From: Bacilli bacterium
Lineage (GTDB): Bacteria > Bacillota_I > Bacilli_A > RFN20 > CAG-826
Length of the DNA stretch: 64,000 bases
Assembly (NCBI GenBank): GCA_024408495.1
Contig: JAKSUY010000001.1
Location: 3,040 to 67,039 of the forward strand
Reading direction: 5' to 3'
Positions 637 through 57,020 of this stretch are shown one piece after another. The position numbers and the translations under genes were made by a program. Numbering within the stretch: position 1 is the stretch's first letter; the number at the start of each line of letters is the position of its first letter. Under the pieces are notes generated by a model. The model did no database searches. It worked only from the letters and a program-made list of their open reading frames with translations, and had not been told where the DNA came from.

Positions 637-2796
637 TTAAAATTTAACGCAAACAGTACAATCAGTATAAGAATAATCTGCTGAAACGATTATGCTTGAG
701 CAACTTTTCATTTTTTCTTTAATCACATTAGCTAAAGATTGTACGTAATTCCATGAACCGAAAGAAAGATTGATGCAAAAATCTTCATTCATAATTGGAA
801 TAGCATTACCTAATGCCTTTGCTTCTATATCTGAATTTAAATCAAAATCATATTTTTTAGATTTATCAAATATATCAGTTGTATAAATGTTACTAACAAG
901 TGGACTATTTGATTTAGTAACATCAGTAAACAACGCTTCTTTAAAATCTGATGGTTTCGCTGCTTCTTTGGCTACTTCTTCAGCTTGTGTTGGAGAATAT
1001 CCTTGATCAATACAAGCATTATAAATAGCTTTATAGGTGTAACTATAAAAATAATTAGATTGAGTCATAAATGGTTGATAACTAATTGCTGAGTAGTTGT
1101 AATTAACAAATTCTTCATCAGCATCATTATCTTTATGAGCCCAAGTCGGACAAATTAAATACCACTTTCCATCACTATGATGATAATAATTCCAAGCATG
1201 TCCGGAAACTACTGATTTTCCTTCTTCATCTAGGTATGTAGCAAATCCTGCTGAACGAATAATCGGTAATCCTTCAATGCCGCCCATAATCGCTAAGGCT
1301 TTAGAGAAGCCATCACAAACCGCGATGCCTTTATTCAAGAAAACGCCTTCAGCAAAATAACTAGACCAATTATAAAAATCCTCGGCTTCTTCAGGAGCAG
1401 GATTTTGTGTAATCCAGTGATCATAATGAGTATTATCCATTAACCATTCGAACAATTGGCGAACTTTCATTAAATCATCAGTTGTTTCAGTACCAAATGC
1501 ATTAGCGCATGCTCCACGCGCTTCTTGATAGACTTGATAAGCACGATTAGCGACACTACCCACAATAGCGATTTCGGCGCCATCAAATATCGGTCTAAAT
1601 CCTCTTTCAAGCGCAAAGAATAAAGTTTCTGAATTATGCACTTTTAATCTTTTTTTAGCATCATCAATCGCAAAATGATCGCCAGAACGAGGTTGGATTT
1701 TAGAATGACGGAGTTCATAGGCCGCATTTTTTAAATTTTTATAATAGTATTGACTATAACTAGACTGTGATATGTCTTTTGATTTAGTTGCCATCTCCTC
1801 TGAAGGTTTTAATTCAACGTGATTAGTTTTGCCAATACCAGTATTCCATGTATATCTTTCATAAACGGATGGGGCACTTAATCTAGTCTCTATCCGATTA
1901 TTTAAGAAATCATCAAGACTGTCTTGATTATCGTAATTAAAAGTTAGAGTAATGTCATATGCACCGCGACCGATGGCGAAATCAAAACTTTCTGCTGCTT
2001 CTTGCGTAGTAGTCGGATGATGAACACTAACATTAACAGAATCGCTTCCTCTTCCATCAGAAACAGTCACAGTAGCTGTACCTTCTACATTTCCATTAGC
2101 AGCATCAAGATAAATACAAGACCGCGACTTATCAAGTTCTACAGTTAATATATTTTTATTGCTACTTGTTGCGGTTATGTTATCCGTTTGCTCATCACCA
2201 TAAGAAACGACCGTTGAACCATATGAAACAATGGAACTATTTTCTGGTGCATCTAAATATATTTTTCTTGTTTCTCGATATTGCGCATATACAGTAAAAT
2301 CATCTTCTACAATATAATCGGTATTAATAGTTTCTTCACCAGCAGCATCAAAAGTCCAATATTTAAATTCGTAATTCTCTTTTGTTGCGGTTGGTTTATC
2401 ACATTTACTAAATAATGCGCCATCTTCAACGCTTCTAGTTTTTTCGCCAACTATGCTTCCACCATTCTCATTAAAAGTAACGGTGTGACATTCATTCGCA
2501 AAATGAGCGTACACTTCAATATCACTAGTAATTTTATACGAAGCTTCTACTTTATTAGAACCTTCTATATCAAATGCCCAATATTTAAATAACTCATTAA
2601 CCTTAGTTACAATAGGTGTGTCGCACTGACTGAATGATGTTCCCGACTTAACCTGAATCGATGAAGATCCGCTTGTAATTGTTCCACTGTTTGGATTAAA
2701 AGTCACCGTGCATAAATCTTGAGTAGGTTTATTTCCGCACGAAAATAAAGTTGGTAGAACTAAAGTAAAAATAAAAAGTACTTTTCCGTGCTTCAT
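637..2796 (-). CDS. surface lipoprotein with Listeria-Bacteroides-type repeats, an Ig-like segment and a C-terminal transglutaminase-like cysteine protease core
   Basis: There is a signal peptide with lipobox LFSC. Two roughly 70-aa repeats are present (CTVTFNPNSG...KYWAFD...VYAHF and CHTVTFNENGG...FKYWTFD...VYAQY). A TATVTVSDG segment follows. The C-terminus carries a Cys/His/Asp core (CDGFSKALAIMGGIEGLP ... GHAWNYY ... ICPTWA). Confidence 0.7.
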   Translation of the reverse strand: MKHGKVLFIFTLVLPTLFSCGNKPTQDLCTVTFNPNSGTITSGSSSIQVKSGTSFSQCDTPIVTKVNELFKYWAFDIEGSNKVEASYKITSDIEVYAHFANECHTVTFNENGGSIVGEKTRSVEDGALFSKCDKPTATKENYEFKYWTFDAAGEETINTDYIVEDDFTVYAQYRETRKIYLDAPENSSIVSYGSTVVSYGDEQTDNITATSSNKNILTVELDKSRSCIYLDAANGNVEGTATVTVSDGRGSDSVNVSVHHPTTTQEAAESFDFAIGRGAYDITLTFNYDNQDSLDDFLNNRIETRLSAPSVYERYTWNTGIGKTNHVELKPSEEMATKSKDISQSSYSQYYYKNLKNAAYELRHSKIQPRSGDHFAIDDAKKRLKVHNSETLFFALERGFRPIFDGAEIAIVGSVANRAYQVYQEARGACANAFGTETTDDLMKVRQLFEWLMDNTHYDHWITQNPAPEEAEDFYNWSSYFAEGVFLNKGIAVCDGFSKALAIMGGIEGLPIIRSAGFATYLDEEGKSVVSGHAWNYYHHSDGKWYLICPTWAHKDNDADEEFVNYNYSAISYQPFMTQSNYFYSYTYKAIYNACIDQGYSPTQAEEVAKEAAKPSDFKEALFTDVTKSNSPLVSNIYTTDIFDKSKKYDFDLNSDIEAKALGNAIPIMNEDFCINLSFGSWNYVQSLANVIKEKMKSCSSIIVSADYSYTDCTVCVKF

Positions 2797-2827
2797 ATAT
2801 TAGTAATATATCGTAAATTTCATAAAC

Positions 2828-2857
2828 TTGCATATTGTTTCATAATTCAAGTATAAT
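2828..2857 (+). promoter_or_regulatory. candidate sigma-70 promoter for the ferredoxin gene
   Basis: TTGCAT (2828-2833), an 18-nt spacer, then TATAAT (2852-2857). A GGAGG SD lies about 10 nt before the ATG at 2884. Confidence 0.35.
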
Positions 2858-2883
2858 TTAATAGTTAACGGAGGCTATATAAT

Positions 2884-3057
2884 ATGGCAGTTAAATTAAA
2901 AGTTAATAAAGATGTTTGCATCGGATGCGGTGCATGCGTTGGTGCCTTACCAGATGCCTTTACCTTTGATGCGGACGGCAAAGCTGAATGCGTTAAAGAG
3001 GTTGAAAAACCAGAAGAGGTCAAAGCGAATTGCCCAGTTGGTGCAATCGAAGGCTAA
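2884..3057 (+). CDS. small 4Fe-4S ferredoxin (57 aa)
   Basis: My own translation is MAVKLKVNKDVCIGCGACVGALPDAFTFDADGKAECVKEVEKPEEVKANCPVGAIEG. It has a CxxCxxC...CP cluster motif, a GGAGG SD and a terminator directly downstream. It falls below the length cutoff of the ORF track. Confidence 0.8.
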   Translation: MAVKLKVNKDVCIGCGACVGALPDAFTFDADGKAECVKEVEKPEEVKANCPVGAIEG

Positions 3058-3071
3058 GTAGCTTATTAACT

Positions 3072-3100
3072 AAAGGCGCCCTAAAGGGCGCTTTTATTTT
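3072..3100 (+). terminator. rho-independent terminator after the ferredoxin gene
   Basis: AAAGGCGCCC-TAAA-GGGCGCTTTTATTTT forms a GC stem followed by a T-run. Confidence 0.6.
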
Positions 3101-3128
3101 ACCTATAAAACCGATATAATTGTTCATT

Positions 3129-4532
3129 ATGAATTTAGTTTTTAAAGACAAAGGGCTTCGTAAACAAGTATTTTCTTTAGCGATTCCGTTTTTCTTACAA
3201 GAAGCGATTTTAGTCTTAACTAGTTTTTTAACTGCTCTAATGTTTAATCCCACCATTCCAGTAGAAAAAAGTGCAATCCTTAACGGAGTTGGCACCGCAG
3301 GCAATGTCTACTTCTTATTTAACATTACAGTAGGAGCGTTAGTGTTTATTGGAAATCTATTTATTTCTCAACATTATGGAAAAGGGAGATATGATGAAGT
3401 TGAAAAAGATTTCTACTTATCTTTAAAAATTGTCGCAGTTTTATCCGTTATCTTTTTTGTGCTATCTATGGCGATCCCTAGCCAAATCTTATCGATTTTT
3501 ATCCCAGGTCAAGAAGAAGCGATTATGTATGGCACCAAGTATTTGAGAATATTTGCTATCTCACTACTCTTTAACGGATTCTCGCTCATTTACTATTGTT
3601 TCATGAAGAATACTGGTTTAGAAAAACTTGCTACCACTAATTCATTAATTACCTTAAGCCTATTAGCTTTATTAAATGGAATTTTTATTTTCGGAGTTGA
3701 TATGGGGCTACAAGGCATTGCTCTTTCGATAGTAATCGCTCGTTGCGTAGAAATGATTCTTAATATTGTATTCGTACAAACTAAAGGCAAAATTAAAGTT
3801 AATCCTAAAAACTTTTTTAAACGTTCTCATCGCTTTAAAGAATTCTTTAAACGCGGCGGACCATTAACATTAGCTAAATTAAGTTGGGCAACTGGATTTT
3901 TAATGATATCAGTTGTGTTAGGTCAGCTAGTAAAAAATTTAACTGATGCCGGTGTTGCTAACGCAGATGCTATTACTACTGCTAACATTCTTTTATCAAA
4001 CGCTATTAATATCGTTATGAGCGTTCCTAATTGCGTTGCCCCGACGGTTAGCGTAATTGTTGGTCGTCAGTTAGGCGCTAATAAATTAGAACAAGCGAAA
4101 GACAGCTCAAAACAAATATTGCGATTTACTGCTGTGTTAACCATTTTTGCGGTTTGCGCAACCATGTTATCTTATCCAATCATTTACGCCACGCATAGTA
4201 ATGTTAGCGGTGATATAGATGTAAGTAATTATCTTTTATATTTCACTATTATTGTAGCGGTAATAACTATTCCTAGAGGATTTAACGGTCCGATTGAGAA
4301 CGGGATTTTAAATGTAGGCGGTGATAACTTATATGTTAGCATCCTTGATGCTACAACATGGGTAATTCCGGTTGGACTTGGTTTTATTGGTGTTAATTGT
4401 GGTTGGCATCCCGTTGCCGTATTCGCAGTTTTGCAACTTGAAGAAGTAATTAAATGCCCAATTAATTTCTGGCGTTATAAAACCAATAAATGGGTTAAAA
4501 ACATTACCACCACTAATGAAGCAATTAACTAG
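3129..4532 (+). CDS. MATE family efflux transporter
   Basis: The product is a roughly 467-aa protein with about 12 transmembrane (TM) helices. The N-terminus is MATE-like (LRKQVFSLAIPFFLQEAILVL). The ATG at 3129 is preferred over the TTG at 3120 used by the ORF track. Confidence 0.7.
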   Translation: MNLVFKDKGLRKQVFSLAIPFFLQEAILVLTSFLTALMFNPTIPVEKSAILNGVGTAGNVYFLFNITVGALVFIGNLFISQHYGKGRYDEVEKDFYLSLKIVAVLSVIFFVLSMAIPSQILSIFIPGQEEAIMYGTKYLRIFAISLLFNGFSLIYYCFMKNTGLEKLATTNSLITLSLLALLNGIFIFGVDMGLQGIALSIVIARCVEMILNIVFVQTKGKIKVNPKNFFKRSHRFKEFFKRGGPLTLAKLSWATGFLMISVVLGQLVKNLTDAGVANADAITTANILLSNAINIVMSVPNCVAPTVSVIVGRQLGANKLEQAKDSSKQILRFTAVLTIFAVCATMLSYPIIYATHSNVSGDIDVSNYLLYFTIIVAVITIPRGFNGPIENGILNVGGDNLYVSILDATTWVIPVGLGFIGVNCGWHPVAVFAVLQLEEVIKCPINFWRYKTNKWVKNITTTNEAIN

Positions 4533-19272: not shown

Positions 19273-19710
19273 TTATGCGATACTACGGATAAAATTAAGC
19301 GTTGCACTTTTTCCTGGACAATGCTCTTTTACTAAGTGATTATTAACCTTAATAATTGATGGGAACCCTTTAATACGAAATTGGTTAATATCACCTTGCC
19401 CAATTGTGCTTTTTACATCTAAATAACGATCAGTTTCAATTGCATTATCATTGCAAAAATAAACCGGCATTTGATGTGTTAGACTAATCTCAATTATTTC
19501 ATCACGAATCGAATCACAATATTGGCAAGTTCTGGAGAAGAAATATACACAATAATTTTCTCCTTTAGTAAATGTATCTAGCCAATTAATCGTCTTCTCG
19601 CTAATTTCTTCATAGCTATGATGAGGGATGGTTGGGTCCTTTTCCTGTTCTTTATTAGTAGAACAAGAGAAAAGCAATGGGATAACCAATAGTAGAATTT
19701 TTCCTTTCAT
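19273..19710 (-). CDS. thioredoxin-fold lipoprotein (CxxC)
   Basis: Lipobox LLFSC, a CQYC redox motif, and a GFPS(I) segment typical of the thioredoxin fold. An AGGAGG SD is present. Confidence 0.6.
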   Translation of the reverse strand: MKGKILLLVIPLLFSCSTNKEQEKDPTIPHHSYEEISEKTINWLDTFTKGENYCVYFFSRTCQYCDSIRDEIIEISLTHQMPVYFCNDNAIETDRYLDVKSTIGQGDINQFRIKGFPSIIKVNNHLVKEHCPGKSATLNFIRSIA

Positions 19711-19724
19711 AATTTACCTCCTAA

Positions 19725-19985
19725 TTTAACCCCGGACCTTGCGGCCCGGGTCGGCACTCGCCCCTTTACAAAACTCCTACGAGGTGCTATCATTGTTTCG
19801 ATTGGTTTGGGGACGGTATGACCGTCCTTTTTCATTACCTTCGCGAGATTAACTCAATCAGTAATGCCATAACTACCAACAGCAAAATAGTTTCTAGCGT
19901 AGCTTTACTCCTTTGTTGCAGCACCAAGGAGATAAAGGGTAGGCGCCTAAGGTGAATAAATGCATAAAGCAAGTATCCCCCTTAT
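19725..19985 (-). ncRNA. unclassified G+C-rich structured RNA or 5' leader candidate (orientation uncertain)
   Basis: No ORF is present. By hand count 19731-19830 is 57% G+C, against about 19% for 20031-20100. It contains several clean hairpins, including an 8-bp GC stem with a GCAA loop. See the findings. Confidence 0.4.
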
Positions 19986-20169
19986 ATATGTACTTAGCGA
20001 AAAAGGAGTGAAATTCTCACTTATTTTTTTATATTTATATAGTTATATAAATATATATTTTTGCTCGATTTTATTTTTAGGGCTTTTTGCGTTTTTAAAG
20101 CACGAGATAATTATTTCGTTTGCACTATAATATAGAATTTATAAATTCATAAAACTATAATAAATATAG

Positions 20170-21057
20170 ATGTTTAAAGAAAAAGAAACATTATTACAAA
20201 ATATGGCCTTCATGGGTATCATGGCGGCACTTAATGTTTTGCTATCTGCTTTAGGTGCTTATGTTCCAATCGTTGGTATTTTTGTGGTGATTTTTCTTCC
20301 GTTCTTTAGTGCAATTACCGCGATGATATGTAAATGGAAATATTATCCGATTTACGCCATTGCTACAATTATAGTTTCTTTATGCGCAACATTTTGGCAT
20401 ACCGAATTCACAGTCTTTTATTTAATTCCTAGTGTGATTACTGGATTTTTATTCGGCTTATGTTTTAAATTAAAGCTTAATGCAACTTATTCATTGCTTT
20501 TTACTTCACTAACGCAACTAGGATTAACTTATCTAGCAATTCCGATTATTGAAGCAATTTATGGCACAAATTTAATTGATACATTTTTAACATTACTTCA
20601 ACTTAAGGATAATCCACACGCTCTAATTATTGTGCCTTCATTTATTTATCTACTATCTCTTGCGCAGATGCTACTTTCTTATATCGTACTTCATAATGAG
20701 ATTAAAAAATTCTCTAACGAAGAAATGAATAAAAATGGTTTAATCATTAAACTAACTGGTTTAGGTTTATCGATTTTAGTAATCCCACTTGCCTTTAGTT
20801 TTATAAATATGAGCTACCTATTTATGTTTGTGTCTTTATTTTTAACTGTTAGCGTGTTTATTGATCTTATTTTTACTAAAAATAAATTAATTATTGTTAT
20901 ATCTTCAATTCTATTTTCTTTAGGCTTTATCTTTGTCTTCGCTTTCTATAGTCTTATTCAAATGCCCTATACTTTTTTACTAATAAATACGAGTAATATT
21001 TTATTGCTTACTTTTTCCTTATTATATAATTTAAAGAGAGAGAAGAAAGTATGTTAG
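20170..21057 (+). CDS. polytopic membrane protein, unknown function
   Basis: 295 aa with about 8 TM helices. It is the first gene of three with overlapping stop/start codons. Confidence 0.6.
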   Translation: MFKEKETLLQNMAFMGIMAALNVLLSALGAYVPIVGIFVVIFLPFFSAITAMICKWKYYPIYAIATIIVSLCATFWHTEFTVFYLIPSVITGFLFGLCFKLKLNATYSLLFTSLTQLGLTYLAIPIIEAIYGTNLIDTFLTLLQLKDNPHALIIVPSFIYLLSLAQMLLSYIVLHNEIKKFSNEEMNKNGLIIKLTGLGLSILVIPLAFSFINMSYLFMFVSLFLTVSVFIDLIFTKNKLIIVISSILFSLGFIFVFAFYSLIQMPYTFLLINTSNILLLTFSLLYNLKREKKVC

Positions 21058-28682: not shown

Positions 28683-29711
28683 TTATTTATTTAAATTAGA
28701 AATGATTTCAGCAATAATTTGCATATCTTTTTTAAATTTATAAACTGGTAATGGATTAAATTTATCTTGTAGCGGTAACACCATTAGGCAATCATCATAG
28801 CCTAAACAGAAATAGGTTTTGCCTTTCGTGATTGAAATCGAAACATCCACTAATACGTTATTAGTAATCAATTCGCTAATTAGCTGTCTAGCTTTGGCGT
28901 TCACTACTGATTCATATTTATTGTTCTCAGTATAAATAACCATTTTTCTAGTGTTAACTGCTTTAGTTAAATGATCAACATTATTAGGAGGCAATGCTCT
29001 ACTATTGCCAGTTAAATAAATAACAATCTGTTGATCACCTGTATAGGTATTAGGGGCAATTAGGTATTTACCAATAAAAAGGGGTTCTAATTTTTTTAAA
29101 GTAGTCATTTGCGCGGCGCAATCGCACATTTTGCATTCTACATCGCCGACTTTAAAATTAACAACATTACGACTACCAATTGTAGAAACGTTTTTATAAA
29201 GCAGGCTACTATTAAATTCATTGTTTTCAATTTTGCCTTCAATATCACCATTTACATCTTTAAAGCATGGTTGCCCAAAGACATAAGCGTTTATATCGCC
29301 ATAATAACGTTTAAGATAAACATTCATTCTCTTGTTATTAAATCTTTTAGCGAGTATATAGTAAGAGACAATAATTAAAATTGAGACCCCAAGTAAACAA
29401 TAACCAGTAATTACAAGTGGTTGGTTATCCTTTTGTTGTATCAAATAAACAAATGCAAATATTAATAAGCCAATAGAAATAGCTGCGACAATCCACTTAA
29501 CAATATTTTCTTTTTTGACAACTTTATAAAAGTTTAGACGGCCAGTCTCAATATCTTGAAGCTTATCATCTTCGTATTTAAATTCGGCTTTTAAATCAAT
29601 ATCATTAGGATTAATTGCTTCTTTAGCTTTAACTTCTTCTTTTTCTAATGCTTGACCTTTTTCGTCAATAGCATTTTCGTTTGTATTTTTAGTTTCCTGT
29701 TGTTTAAACAT
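28683..29711 (-). CDS. two-TM membrane protein with a conserved-looking C-terminal domain, unknown function
   Basis: The start is placed at MFKQQ (29711), which has a GAGGAAA SD. The N-terminus is acidic and lysine-rich, followed by 2 TM helices and a C-terminal domain of about 210 aa. Confidence 0.55.
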   Translation of the reverse strand: MFKQQETKNTNENAIDEKGQALEKEEVKAKEAINPNDIDLKAEFKYEDDKLQDIETGRLNFYKVVKKENIVKWIVAAISIGLLIFAFVYLIQQKDNQPLVITGYCLLGVSILIIVSYYILAKRFNNKRMNVYLKRYYGDINAYVFGQPCFKDVNGDIEGKIENNEFNSSLLYKNVSTIGSRNVVNFKVGDVECKMCDCAAQMTTLKKLEPLFIGKYLIAPNTYTGDQQIVIYLTGNSRALPPNNVDHLTKAVNTRKMVIYTENNKYESVVNAKARQLISELITNNVLVDVSISITKGKTYFCLGYDDCLMVLPLQDKFNPLPVYKFKKDMQIIAEIISNLNK

Positions 29712-29757
29712 GCTTTCGTTTCCTCTATGCCTTTTAATTTTACAATAATCTAAAGAT

Positions 29758-30300
29758 TTATTGTATTTCTTTTGTATCAGGATAACGCTTAGTAACAATT
29801 TGTAGCGGTTTAAATAAAAGTAAAAGAATCGCTAGAGTAACCGCCCCAGTGATTGAAACATAAGTAGCGTTATAGATAAATGATGCTAAGAAAGTATATT
29901 CGTATAACCATACTCCATCAATGGTGGCAAATAATATTCTTAGTAAAGTAGCAAGCACTACACTAATAATTAAATAAATAAAACCATATTTCTTTTCAAA
30001 AGTTGGTTTACGTACAAAGCTAATCAAAGTTAAAGCACCACAACTTAACATATAATCTAATGGATAAGTTTGGAAACCGTATCCATCCATGAGGCACGCA
30101 AATAAACCATAGATAAGCGCAGTTGCGATTAAAGTTTTCCACCACGATTTTCTTAAGGCAATAATACATAAGGGAACCATAGTAAATGAAATCGAACCAC
30201 CATTAGACATGATATGAATAGAAAAAATCGGAAGGTTAAGGACTAATGCTAATCCTACAAATATTCCGATTTCTGCTATATCTCTAATTGTATATTTCAT
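29758..30300 (-). CDS. thiT: ThiT-like thiamine ECF S component
   Basis: A six-TM small membrane protein directly behind a TPP riboswitch. The start is placed at MKYTIRD (30300), which has a GGAGGG SD. Confidence 0.7.
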   Translation of the reverse strand: MKYTIRDIAEIGIFVGLALVLNLPIFSIHIMSNGGSISFTMVPLCIIALRKSWWKTLIATALIYGLFACLMDGYGFQTYPLDYMLSCGALTLISFVRKPTFEKKYGFIYLIISVVLATLLRILFATIDGVWLYEYTFLASFIYNATYVSITGAVTLAILLLLFKPLQIVTKRYPDTKEIQ

Positions 30301-30380
30301 TTTTCCCTCCGCTAGCATTACCTAGATCAGGTGTGGTCGGCTATTCGCCCTCTCAGCCCCATAGAGCTCCCAAAACTATT
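30301..30380 (-). promoter_or_regulatory. TPP (THI-box) riboswitch
   Basis: The minus strand reads GGGAGCTCTATGGGGCTGAGAGGGCGAATAGCCGACCACACCTGATCTAGGTAATGCTAGCGGAGGGAAAA. It contains the CUGAGA motif and the ACCUGAUCUrGnUAAUnCyAGCG motif. The 3' strand includes the SD. Confidence 0.85.
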
Positions 30381-30413
30381 ATATATAAACGTTTAGCTAA
30401 ACAAAAATAAATA

Positions 30414-35947: not shown

Positions 35948-36351
35948 TTTTTAAATATCCTCGCAATTTTCTCACGGTATCCTTCAATTTGAGTTTTTGG
36001 TGAAATTTTATAACAGCACTTATTGACGAAATGCTCGCAATTATTGTTGACAAAATTATAGGCGCCTTCTCCTAAATGACTGAAAGCATTAGAGATAATC
36101 GTTTCAACTAAATTTCTGTTCTTTTTTTCTTTGCGAGAATAGATTGCTTTTTCTACTGGGCTATTGGAAGCGAAAAAATCTAAAGAGGTTTTCCTCACTT
36201 TTACATCACTAGGATTAGCAATCCCATCATTATTCTCAGCGGTATAATGAATAACTTCATTATTTCCTAAATATATACCATGATGATAATAGTAATTACG
36301 TGAGACGCGAATATGATCGCCCTTTTCTAAAACCCCGTACTCCCATTTCAT
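35944..36351 (-). CDS. LRAT/PLAAT (NlpC/P60-like) family protein
   Basis: An H-box is present (GDHIRV..YYHHGIYLGNNEVIHY), together with the hallmark NCEHF motif (NNNCEHFVNKC). There are ATGA overlaps at both ends. Confidence 0.7.
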   Translation of the reverse strand: MKWEYGVLEKGDHIRVSRNYYYHHGIYLGNNEVIHYTAENNDGIANPSDVKVRKTSLDFFASNSPVEKAIYSRKEKKNRNLVETIISNAFSHLGEGAYNFVNNNCEHFVNKCCYKISPKTQIEGYREKIARIFKK

Positions 36352-38291
36352 AATGATAATAATTCCTTTATTTTGATGGAGAAATCGCCTGGTGTTCTAC
36401 ATAGGGTTAAATTATTTTTTGCATGTAAATTAAAAGCATTTTCAATCGCTTCCACTAGATAAAAGTAATCGAGAGAATTTCCGTGCAAATCAGCGAAATA
36501 ATCAGTATGAGCATCAATCGGATGATTAGGGAATTTTTGTTTAAATATTTCGATGATTTTATCAACGATAAATTTATCAAATTCCTCGTTATTTAAAAAA
36601 TCACTAAAATCGTTTGGATTAAGTAATCTAAAATCGTTTGGATTTGATTGAAATAATTCTTCAATCTTTTTGCGCTTTATTTTAATTCCGTTTGCTTTAG
36701 GGAAGACTAATGATGTCGCAAAAACTTTTTTAATACTTCCACTTCTATACTCAATATTAGAAGTAAGGATAGATAAATCACGTGCAATTTGATAGTCATT
36801 TACATTAGCACTATAAGAAAGTAAAAGACACAAATCATTGTTTTGATTTTTAATTAAAACTGAATCTAAAGCGTAACGAAGATTTAAATTAGCTTCAATT
36901 AGCGAAATCGACTTATTCTCGCCATTAGCGCCAATGAATATTTCATCGACTCTACCTTTTAGGACATAGTGATTGTTGATTAAATCCGCTACATCAAAAG
37001 TACGTATTTTTTTAGATTTATCCCTTGTTATCCATTGATTATCAATAAGCGCTTTATTAAACATTGATTCGCTTTTTATATATAGTTCATTACTAGAACC
37101 ATCGCTTGCTGATTCTAATGAATAATCAAAAATTTTAAATGGTAATCCAATGTTTGGAGTTACTCTTTCAGTGATTTTTTTAGGATTAGCAAATGATGCG
37201 ATACCAATTTCAGTTGATCCATAACCATTCACCAATGGATAACCAATTCCGTTAATAATTTTTAACGTCTCTTCGGTAATTTGTGAGCCACCCACAATGC
37301 AAAATTGAATTGATACACCTAAGATGTCCTCTAAATATTTCCCGAATAGCATTTTACGAACAATTGTATTTCCGAACTTAGGAAATACTTTTTGTAGACC
37401 AAGTGAAAGCTTTATTCCTTTATTAAATTTCTGCTCTAAATGATTAGATTTTACGTTAAATTTAATCATTGATACGATGGTTTCAAAGAATAAGGGGACC
37501 GCAAAAATATGTGTGGGCCTACAAACAACACAAGCTTGTCGGATTCTTTCTGATGATAAATTCATTGGTAAGACAAACGTAACGTTAAAGAAAGAAAACC
37601 AGAGAAAAACCGCTACAAAACCAAAAATATGATAAAAAGGTAAAACTACTAAATGTTTTAAATATCCTTTATAATCTCGAGCTAAAATCGGATTCTTTTT
37701 AAATATGTCTTCGCAATTGAGTACTTGTGCGCATAGTTCCTTTCCAGTAAAAGCAACTATTTTATTAGGACCAGATGTTCCTGATGAGATGAAAACAATT
37801 TCATCCGCCCATTCGTGCTTATGATTTATTTCGATTTGAATTTCTTGGCACGGATTGATTTGATTAACACCAAGATTGCATTCTATGTCAGTTATTACAT
37901 ACGTTGAATTAACCTTTTTTAATATTTCTTGGTTTTCGTCATTATCGTTTCTTGTGCTTAATAAGACAGGTATATATCCATACATCAAAAGGCCATAAAA
38001 AGAATAAATCCATTCAGGTTTATTATCTAATAAGATCCCAACATAACGACTGTTGCTAGCAATAATCGATTGAAAATATGATCCAAATTTTTCGATTTGG
38101 CAAAAAGCATCATGATAACTAATATCTTCTACTCCAGCGTTATTAACCACTTGAAGAAAAGTATAGTTAGGATGAGAAAAAACGATTTGAAAAATGCTTT
38201 CGATTGTCGGTGTTGAGTTTTGTAATTTATTTAGATTCTCTTTTACTCGATTTTTAGCAATTCGATGAGAAATTTTCTCTTCTTTAATCAT
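36348..38291 (-). CDS. adenylate-forming (ANL) enzyme fused to a C-terminal carrier domain
   Basis: Motifs SSGTSGPNK, NGYGSTE and LKGRVDEIF. The C-terminal region of about 80 aa contains DLHGNSLDYFYLVEAIE, a carrier Ser motif. Confidence 0.7.
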   Translation of the reverse strand: MIKEEKISHRIAKNRVKENLNKLQNSTPTIESIFQIVFSHPNYTFLQVVNNAGVEDISYHDAFCQIEKFGSYFQSIIASNSRYVGILLDNKPEWIYSFYGLLMYGYIPVLLSTRNDNDENQEILKKVNSTYVITDIECNLGVNQINPCQEIQIEINHKHEWADEIVFISSGTSGPNKIVAFTGKELCAQVLNCEDIFKKNPILARDYKGYLKHLVVLPFYHIFGFVAVFLWFSFFNVTFVLPMNLSSERIRQACVVCRPTHIFAVPLFFETIVSMIKFNVKSNHLEQKFNKGIKLSLGLQKVFPKFGNTIVRKMLFGKYLEDILGVSIQFCIVGGSQITEETLKIINGIGYPLVNGYGSTEIGIASFANPKKITERVTPNIGLPFKIFDYSLESASDGSSNELYIKSESMFNKALIDNQWITRDKSKKIRTFDVADLINNHYVLKGRVDEIFIGANGENKSISLIEANLNLRYALDSVLIKNQNNDLCLLLSYSANVNDYQIARDLSILTSNIEYRSGSIKKVFATSLVFPKANGIKIKRKKIEELFQSNPNDFRLLNPNDFSDFLNNEEFDKFIVDKIIEIFKQKFPNHPIDAHTDYFADLHGNSLDYFYLVEAIENAFNLHAKNNLTLCRTPGDFSIKIKELLSL

Positions 38292-56808: not shown

Positions 56809-56850
56809 TTACTACAAGAACACTACTATATTATTAATATATATGTTCAT

Positions 56851-56910
56851 TCGTAGTGTCAGGTTAAGGCCTGACGTAGAGACTACCCACCATATTAGGG
56901 TTATATACGA
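56851..56910 (-). promoter_or_regulatory. purine riboswitch aptamer, guanine/hypoxanthine type
   Basis: The minus strand reads TCGTATATAACCCTAATATGGTGGGTAGTCTCTACGTCAGGCCTTAACCTGACACTACGA. Helices P1, P2 and P3 are present, with conserved J1-2 UAUAA and J2-3 AGUCUCUA. A C occupies the specificity position in J3-1 (ACU). Confidence 0.85.
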
Positions 56911-57020
56911 GTTAATCTGACGATTAACAAAAACATATTAATATGTAATATCATTATTAGCAACAATAATCGTAGATTATAACAATAAAAGCGCTTTCAT
57001 ATATAAAAATAGTTTTTTTA

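Follow-up and report, generated by a model that had tools for sequence, protein, structure and literature searches.

The element described here occupies positions 19725-19985 of a 64-kb window of genomic DNA from a Bacilli bacterium (contig JAKSUY010000001.1); the window is the whole stretch that was analysed, and all coordinates are positions in it. The element lies between a thioredoxin-like lipoprotein gene and divergent membrane-protein genes, where a sequence-only reading of the same DNA had placed an unclassified structured RNA (a candidate riboswitch, leader or small RNA). We suggest, with a probability of about 0.5, that it represents a so far undescribed family of type I toxin-antitoxin-like modules and lies in the leader of the lipoprotein-pcrA-ligA operon. 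It combines a conserved open reading frame (ORF), covarying hairpins and conserved antisense promoter and terminator signals with a patchy distribution among its relatives. The genes that border it were as follows.

19273-19710, minus strand: gene for a thioredoxin-like lipoprotein, which opens the lipoprotein-pcrA-ligA operon
19708-19722, minus strand: Shine-Dalgarno (SD) sequence AGGAGG and ATG of the lipoprotein gene, which in the window needs transcription through the element
From 20170, plus strand: divergent membrane-protein genes

The intergenic gap (19711-20169) is 459 bp long, as the sequence-only reading had it, and the base counts given there were exact (57 G/C of 100 nt in 19731-19830, and 13 of 70, or 19%, in 20031-20100). 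Block 19725-19985 has 46% G+C, compared with 33% for the window, which places it in the 99.9th percentile of all 261-nt windows. A promoter scan called no promoter-like site on the minus strand between the element and the lipoprotein gene. Since the element runs directly into the lipoprotein SD with no promoter between them, it is, on sequence grounds, physically part of the operon 5′ leader in the window, and the earlier reading was right on this point. It was also right that the block is genuinely G+C-rich and structured, while one of its helices, its pseudoknot and its statement that the block lacks a credible ORF did not stand.

Only 14 homologues of the lipoprotein were detectable, at 64-82% identity. 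They came from assemblies of uncultured “Bacilli bacterium” genomes in NCBI, ENA and Logan, among them metagenome-assembled genomes from horse faeces, and the DNA upstream of the lipoprotein gene was read in every reachable contig. Among 12 distinct orthologous loci, the element was present in eight and missing from four (L005, L007, L008 and L014). Full copies of the window type were found in the window, L002 and L011; L003, L004 and L012 had the same sequence as L002. Only the 3′ end of the element was recovered from L009, L015, L016 and L017, the contigs of which break within it. A second, strongly diverged type was represented by a full copy in L006 and by the 3′ 160 nt in L010. The sequence-diverse copies numbered five (three of the window type and two of the L006 type, one of the latter partial), all from one small clade. 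A genome scan with the lipoprotein alignment recovered only three loci, two of them already among the collected relatives. Six independent Logan contigs (L003, L004, L009, L015, L016 and L017) end in the 3′ part of the element, no more than about 60 nt from the lipoprotein start, which suggests strain-level variation or a repeat in the assembly graphs.

The features of the minus strand, in the direction of transcription, were the following.

19983-20050, minus strand: putative sense promoter block, with an A/T-rich tract, CTAAGTA and a TATATA −10-like box right before AAGGGGG
19948-19984, minus strand: 5′ terminal hairpin, with high pair probability in the window copy, L002, L011 and L006
19917-19947, minus strand: 5′ arm of the predicted closing helix, GGCGCC..CCCUUUAUCUCCUU.GGUGCUGC, present in the minimum free energy (MFE) and centroid folds
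19908-19913, minus strand: SD sequence AAGGAG of the small ORF, read from the sequence
19835-19900, minus strand: small ORF of 21 codons and UAA, encoding (T)LETILLLVVMALLIELISRR
19833-19866, minus strand: mid-ORF/stop-codon hairpin, CAUUACU/GGUAAUG, formed between the central part of the ORF and its final codons with the stop
19753-19792, minus strand: 3′ arm of the predicted closing helix, GC.AGCACC..AGGAG..UAAAGGGG..GAGUGCC
19731-19750, minus strand: 3′ hairpin, G+C-rich and capped by a GCAA loop, 8 nt ahead of the lipoprotein SD and with no U-run after it

In all four full copies a single frame was open for 21 codons and ended at the same stop position, with an A-run and a hairpin right behind it. 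Stops, one to five of them, interrupted the remaining two frames of these copies. The encoded peptides were TLETILLLVVMALLIELISRR in the window, VLDTILLMVVLTLLIELISRR in L002, FILIFLVTVALALLVREMNRK in L011 and LNKLIILLLVVYLLIDKLSGK in L006, with a partial peptide, ...IVLYLVVSKLCH, in L010. Every one of them had a tail of polar or charged residues following a hydrophobic core, despite low nucleotide identity. Between the window copy and L006 the differences at codon positions 1, 2 and 3 numbered 12, 6 and 17, and seven codons differed synonymously; serine was encoded by UCG in one copy and by AGC in the other, and leucine codons were switched as well. T occupied codon position 2 in 13-14 of the 21 codons of every copy. 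Judged from these copies, the substitutions follow a coding pattern. The claim that the block contains no credible ORF was therefore mistaken, given a 21-codon frame (19900-19835, minus strand) that is conserved in relatives and changes in this way.

An AAAGGAG(G) or GGAGG motif preceded the ORF start position by 3-13 nt in the window copy, L002, L011 and L006. At the start-codon position itself (19898-19900), the window has ACG, L002 GUG and L006 UUG. With its ACG, the window copy may be weakly translated, may use another start or may be decaying. Protein searches with a 45-aa extended version of the ORF detected no homologue, and blastn of the element against plasmid and phage collections produced no match. 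When the peptide variants were searched against family databases, the sole match was to TM_ErbB1 (E = 0.065), which we regard as meaningless.

The minus-strand RNA folded at −93.8 kcal/mol, compared with −75.2 ± 5.0 kcal/mol for shuffled sequences (z = −3.73; none of 200 shuffles was as good), and the plus strand gave z = −2.06. The predicted fold consists of the 5′ hairpin, a long closing helix, inner hairpins and the 3′ hairpin, an architecture that was predicted in the window copy, L002, L011 and L006 alike. Measured from the G run through the 3′ hairpin, the RNA would be about 250 nt long, and in the window it probably continues into the operon. A consensus fold of the three window-type copies contained 70 pairs, nine of them with two-sided changes. 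In this consensus the 5′ terminal hairpin was kept, with one-sided changes and one two-sided change, and the closing helix retained its GGC/GCC and CCCUU/AAGGG segments with one compensatory pair. The mid-ORF/stop-codon hairpin was predicted independently in four of the five copies (window, L002, L006 and L010) and was available in L011. Its stems differed by lineage: CAUUAC/GUAAUG, CAUUACUUG/CAAGUAAUG, UUUAUUUGC/GCAAAUAAA and UAUUUAGU/ACUAAAUA. The 3′ hairpin covaried too, CCCGG/CCGGG being replaced by CCCAG/CUGGG in L011 and AUCC/GGGU by AUUC/GAGU in L015, with variable loops. Conservation of the element and covariation of its hairpins in relatives, which the sequence-only reading had named among its checks, were both found. 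Its structured minus-strand RNA is genuine and conserved, though it is not free of ORFs and does not behave like a ligand-sensing leader reserved for the lipoprotein gene.

A covariance model built from the window-type copies, spanning the ORF to the antisense promoter, scored only 17.4 bits in L006 and 12.8 bits in L010, so the link between the two types rests on architecture, length and peptide pattern and not on a significant score. The same model matched 29085-29200 (25.4 bits) and 36395-36511 (22.6 bits), both on the minus strand. These matches were judged to be due to chance as they lie inside the long ORFs 28683-29798 and 36348-38291 (371 and 647 aa).

Several of the pairings noted in the sequence-only reading could be placed within this fold. 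Four of the five helices listed there were complementary as described; the fourth (19870-19875 with 19899-19904) was not, and the actual hairpin at that site joins 19886-19892 with 19871-19877. In two of the listed helices, G.U pairs arise only in the minus-strand reading, consistent with a minus-strand RNA. GGUGCU and AGCACC, put forward as a pseudoknot, are indeed complementary, but they are nested in the long-range 5′-3′ helix and form no pseudoknot; this helix competes with the local CUCCUU/AAGGAG hairpin. The minus strand does carry one CUCCU and three AGGAG copies. Anti-SD/SD pairing of the kind put forward there is possible, but the three-way competition was confined to the lineage of the window copy and L002 and was not kept in L011. 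CUCCUU (19926-19931) lies in the 5′ arm of the closing helix and has the SD of the small ORF as its alternative local partner. The CUCCUU/AAGGAG hairpin was present in the window-type consensus fold and was outcompeted by the long-range helix in the MFE folds. The SD governed by the single CUCCU is most plausibly that of the small ORF itself (19908-19913) and not that of the lipoprotein gene, which was unpaired in all predicted folds.

The sense RNA likely starts at the G run 19977-19981, next to the putative promoter block. The same block precedes the lipoprotein gene in the element-free loci L005, L007 and L008, and in L002, L005, L011 and L006 a copy of it lies on each side of an inserted cassette. 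At the equivalent site of L006 the scan called TTGTCC-16-TATAGT; in the window it called no minus-strand promoter there, and the sense promoter of the window is a putative one, read from the sequence of the block. Within this region, positions 19990-20030 and their equivalents in all related loci carry an A-run and a T-run along with a short weak hairpin (AAAAAAATAAGTGAGAATTTCACTCCTTTTT). This arrangement resembles a two-way terminator, with a hairpin that is not conserved in L005, L007 and L011, and may be no more than an A/T-rich upstream promoter element.

On the plus strand, three features were recognised opposite the 3′ half of the sense RNA.

19765-19793, plus strand: putative antisense promoter, TTTACA, 17 nt, TG-n-TATCAT
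19800-19834, plus strand: predicted antisense RNA of about 35 nt, the candidate antitoxin, delimited by the positions of promoter and terminator
19809-19832, plus strand: post-stop hairpin (19809-19829) followed by TTTTT, the putative antisense terminator, directly after the stop codon of the small ORF

No other site in the region resembled a promoter as closely as the antisense one, which gave 10 of 12 matches together with the TG extension. It was also called in L002 and, as TACAAT, in L011, with the same score and the TG in both, and the same −10 position was occupied by TGgTATAAT in L010 and TATAAT in L006. In all copies and in both sequence types the −10 box lay 13-16 nt before the post-stop hairpin, and the distance from the ORF start to this box was 115-118 nt in all four full copies, despite their low identity. 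The post-stop hairpin with its TTTTT was the only terminator-like site of the region, and an equivalent was called in L006. Its stem has been fully replaced between lineages with pairing kept: four of the eight pairs were compensatory among the window copy, L002 and L011, and the stems of L006 and L010 were different again. All five copies have an A-run before the hairpin on the sense strand, that is, a U-run on the antisense strand. In four copies the predicted antisense RNA was 34-37 nt long, with a 5′ tail and a terminator hairpin in each, and it would be perfectly complementary to the sense RNA right 3′ of the stop codon. A plus-strand small RNA ending at this hairpin had been offered as an alternative to the leader in the sequence-only reading, and a short RNA ending at the 19809-19829 terminator is plausible.

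These signals lead us to the following model, in which we infer that both strands are transcribed, that the ORF is translated, that the peptide is toxic and that the antisense RNA has an effect. The operon promoter (about 19983-20050, minus strand) would produce an RNA starting at the G run, which would form the 5′ terminal hairpin, the long 5′-3′ closing helix and the inner hairpins. The 21-codon ORF (19900-19835) would yield a peptide that spans the membrane once. Its translation would be kept low by CUCCUU/AAGGAG pairing in the nascent RNA, by the hairpin at the end of the ORF and by a weak or non-canonical start codon (ACG in the window). The plus-strand promoter at 19765-19793 would drive synthesis of a transcript of about 35 nt that stops at the 19809-19829 terminator. 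Its pairing with the sense RNA immediately downstream of the stop codon would begin with a loop-loop contact and would trigger decay or inactivation of the peptide mRNA. More specifically, and at somewhat less than even odds, the element could represent a new type I family of uncultured gut Bacilli, with a 21-aa toxin and an antitoxin of about 35 nt that is hardly larger than its terminator hairpin, the module as a whole being embedded in the leader of the essential pcrA/ligA operon and co-transcribed with it.

The element occurred in three arrangements, with copies of the promoter block flanking it. It abuts the lipoprotein SD directly, with no promoter between, in the window, L002, L009, L010, L015, L016 and L017. 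In L011 a second copy of the promoter block and a short hairpin come between it and the lipoprotein gene, and in L006 a hairpin with a U-run and then a second promoter copy do so. The element-free loci contain the conserved promoter block and then just a short GGGGGAG...CUCCCCC hairpin and the SD. Taken from these arrangements, the element is best described as a cassette that has been gained or lost at this site and can be its own transcription unit. The second promoter copy in L011 and L006, together with the patchy presence, argues against a riboswitch or leader dedicated to the lipoprotein gene.

According to the T1TAdb paper (PMC8594479), a type I mRNA measures 150-400 nt and its toxin 20-60 aa, the antisense RNA being 60-200 nt long and, in Gram-positive families, situated on the 3′ side. 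With 21 aa, the peptide is within the size range of the toxins, and it is a small hydrophobic protein. The nearest described relative in design is Fst/RNA II, the par system of Enterococcus faecalis plasmid pAD1, with an mRNA of about 230 nt, a 33-aa toxin, an antitoxin of about 40 nt, convergent promoters and a shared terminator, as well as an SD-sequestering stem-loop and a 5′ helix (PMC7472228). The element would share with it a folded toxin mRNA of about 230-260 nt, a small membrane-helix peptide and a GUG or otherwise weak start, a very short convergent antisense RNA (about 40 nt in par, PMC7472228; predicted to be 34-37 nt here), and an antisense terminator hairpin complementary to a hairpin of the toxin mRNA. 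A helix at the extreme 5′ end, here predicted in the four full copies, and a local stem-loop that could bury the SD, here predicted in the window-type consensus fold, may be further points in common. The tail LLIELISRR shows a weak resemblance to that of Fst, LVLEMISRV.

The element is nevertheless not a member of the Fst family, since it lacks the PXXXG motif, a Pfam match and complementarity corresponding to the direct repeats, and its putative terminator would serve the antisense RNA only. The peptide has 21 aa instead of 33, with no P or G in its hydrophobic part, and gave no Pfam match to an Fst-type or other toxin family at E ≤ 10. Fst has convergent promoters and a bidirectional terminator, whereas here the signals converge and the U-run is on the antisense side only; the hairpin would terminate the antisense RNA, and the sense RNA would run on for about 100 nt, form the 5′-3′ helix and enter the operon. 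The DRa/DRb repeats of Fst give its antitoxin a further stretch of pairing across the toxin SD and start codon (PMC7472228); no such second complementarity to the translation start region was detected in the element.

Other known systems were more distant. The bsrG/SR4 and txpA/RatA pairs of Bacillus subtilis also have an antisense RNA 3′ of the toxin mRNA (PMC8594479), with pairing in the 3′ region as proposed here, but their antitoxins overlap the ORF and measure 60-200 nt (PMC8594479), in contrast to about 35 nt stopping at the stop codon. Their peptides are unrelated to those of the element. They sit in prophage-like regions, whereas the element sits in an operon leader. Ibs/Sib of enterobacteria has a similarly tiny hydrophobic toxin (19 aa for IbsA, bioRxiv 10.1101/2025.05.26.656083, and 21 aa here), but Sib spans the whole ibs ORF (PMC8594479), there is no Pfam similarity and the host phylum is different. 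In hok/Sok and aapA1/IsoA1 a long-range 5′-3′ helix likewise closes the mRNA and alternative local structures involve the SD (PMC6733600, PMC5416894). Their antisense RNAs, however, are directed at the ORF or the 5′ region, and the mRNA becomes active through processing at its 3′ end. In the predicted full-length fold of the element the SD is left largely unpaired, and the logic may be reversed or different compared with hok and aapA1.

As in riboswitches and other Rfam leaders, there is a structured 5′ leader with possible SD/anti-SD alternatives, but the element belongs to no Rfam family, contains a conserved ORF and is linked inconsistently to the downstream gene. The absence of an Rfam family, claimed in the sequence-only reading, was borne out in the window, with no match to the element at gathering scores and nothing meaningful at E ≤ 10 in 19600-20200; Rfam 15 gave no match in L002, L006, L010 and L011. 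ARAGORN found neither a tRNA nor a tmRNA, again in agreement with that reading. Elsewhere in the window Rfam matched a thiamine pyrophosphate (TPP) riboswitch (30286-30383, minus strand; 58.2 bits, E = 7.9e-09) and a purine riboswitch (56834-56930, minus strand; 55.5 bits, E = 8.6e-07), so known riboswitch classes are detectable in this genome. A hammerhead-like CUGAUUGAG...CGAA motif, signal recognition particle RNA, 6S RNA, RNase P and T-box were considered and set aside, as the conserved cores do not fit and Rfam gives no support. A MifM-like arrest peptide was set aside as well, 21 aa being too short and the conserved cores giving no fit. Scanning metagenome contigs with the pattern GTAAAGGGGN{4,8}GCCGACCC produced 120 loci, and a scan of viral sequences four. 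We judged these to be chance matches, since in nhmmer they covered the pattern alone and the pattern is too loose.

Several observations weigh against a toxin-antitoxin module. The start-codon position of the window copy is ACG, and in L011, from a contig with 2.6x coverage, it is UUU/AUC, with a nearby AUG out of frame. The peptide variants matched no family in Pfam, NCBIfam, PHROGs or PADLOC, known toxin families included. The window contains one copy of the ORF and element in 64 kb. Many chromosomal type I systems are multicopy, which makes the single copy a point against this interpretation. The predicted antisense RNA, at 34-37 nt, is shorter than the usual 60-200 nt (PMC8594479), and it has no additional complementarity to the SD and start region beyond chance; its predicted duplex with the 5′ part of the mRNA was no better than with shuffled sequences in the window copy, L002 and L006, and marginal in L011. 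In L002 and L010 the post-stop hairpin has, on the sense strand, a G.U pair that turns into an A.C mismatch when the antisense strand is read; neither locus yielded an antisense terminator in the scan. The ORF SD is mostly unpaired in the full-length MFE fold (pair probability 0.2-0.5), so that any sequestration must use the local hairpin of the nascent RNA or an alternative fold, and the CUCCUU/AAGGAG pairing is poorly kept in L011. Finally, with five diverse copies from one clade, the statistics are thin.

No feature of the element is better supported than the ORF and its coding pattern, and both would also suit an ordinary small membrane-protein gene, the peptide of which is not a toxin and the folded mRNA of which is co-transcribed with the lipoprotein operon, the antisense signals being weak, incidental or unrelated. 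The unusually short antisense RNA with no further complementarity, its mismatched hairpin in L002 and L010, the presence of just one copy in the window and the failure to match a known toxin family all point this way. However, the extended −10 box has stayed 13-16 nt before the hairpin in both types although its surroundings have diverged, and the A-run before the hairpin has no evident role on the sense strand. Presence and absence among the loci, at a hot spot shared with Fic/VbhA and a restriction enzyme (described below), also suit a selfish module better than a housekeeping peptide, and we regard such a gene as rather unlikely. The strong structure and covariation could, in turn, belong to a non-coding structured RNA of unassigned function with the open frame as a by-product, and two of the four full copies do lack a canonical start codon at the expected position. 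This we consider very unlikely, given that one phase only is open in all copies, with fixed length and stop, that codon periodicity and synonymous serine and leucine switches were observed, and that the hydrophobic core and charged tail are kept at low nucleotide identity.

A cis-acting leader of the lipoprotein-pcrA-ligA operon, either a riboswitch or a regulatory upstream ORF in which CUCCU/AGGAG pairings set read-through or translation, takes the sequence-only reading a step further. It would explain why a strongly structured RNA runs directly into the lipoprotein SD in seven loci with no promoter between, and it would make use of the alternative pairing of CUCCU with three AGGAG copies in the window copy and L002. 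We find it clearly unlikely. Four orthologous loci do without the element and have the short 5′ hairpin only, a second promoter block intervenes in L011 and L006 (with a hairpin and U-run as well in the latter), and the lipoprotein SD is free in all folds. Moreover, neither L011 nor the L006 type conserves the CUCCU/AGGAG triad, no U-run follows the 3′ hairpin, and no conserved unpaired core resembling a ligand pocket is evident, the ORF being the most constrained part. A chance G+C-rich stretch or an assembly artefact has nothing in its favour beyond the small number of relatives. It is contradicted by independent NCBI, ENA and Logan assemblies that share the architecture and its compensatory changes, and by a G+C content in the 99.9th percentile of the window, and can hardly be credited.

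If the element is a type I toxin-antitoxin-like module transcribed with the operon, toxin output would be tied to the transcription of DNA repair and replication genes and held down by folding, a near-cognate start codon and antisense RNA. Most known type I families come from cultured Proteobacteria and Firmicutes, and new ones are reported regularly; this one would add a family from uncultured animal-gut Bacilli, residing inside the leader of an essential operon instead of at a stand-alone locus. Its unusual traits would be the 21-aa peptide, the minimal antisense RNA, a sense RNA that passes the antisense terminator, and residence in the pcrA/ligA leader. As a very compact antisense/mRNA pair, it would lend itself to studying how a membrane peptide is restrained by folding and antisense RNA together. 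The case also serves as a warning that G+C-rich leaders of A+T-rich genomes, described as structured and free of ORFs, can hide very small genes.

Other genes were found at or near the same site. An orphan ORF of 88-89 aa, absent from the window, occupied the same intergenic site in L002 (3385-3654, plus strand) and L005 (3623-3889, plus strand). It had no Pfam or PADLOC match and only a weak one in PHROGs (E = 0.08). The two ORFs share the C-terminal motif ARLDYIV..NNLKDLPK, and in both loci near-identical copies of the promoter block, about 70 bp long, lie on either side. In L006 a gene for a Fic-domain protein was located beside a 55-aa ORF with a weak match to the VbhA antitoxin (2069-3320, minus strand). 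In L014 a BglII-like restriction endonuclease was encoded directly upstream of the same operon (1664-2317, plus strand). The site upstream of the lipoprotein-pcrA-ligA operon looks like a hot spot for accessory or addiction-type genes.

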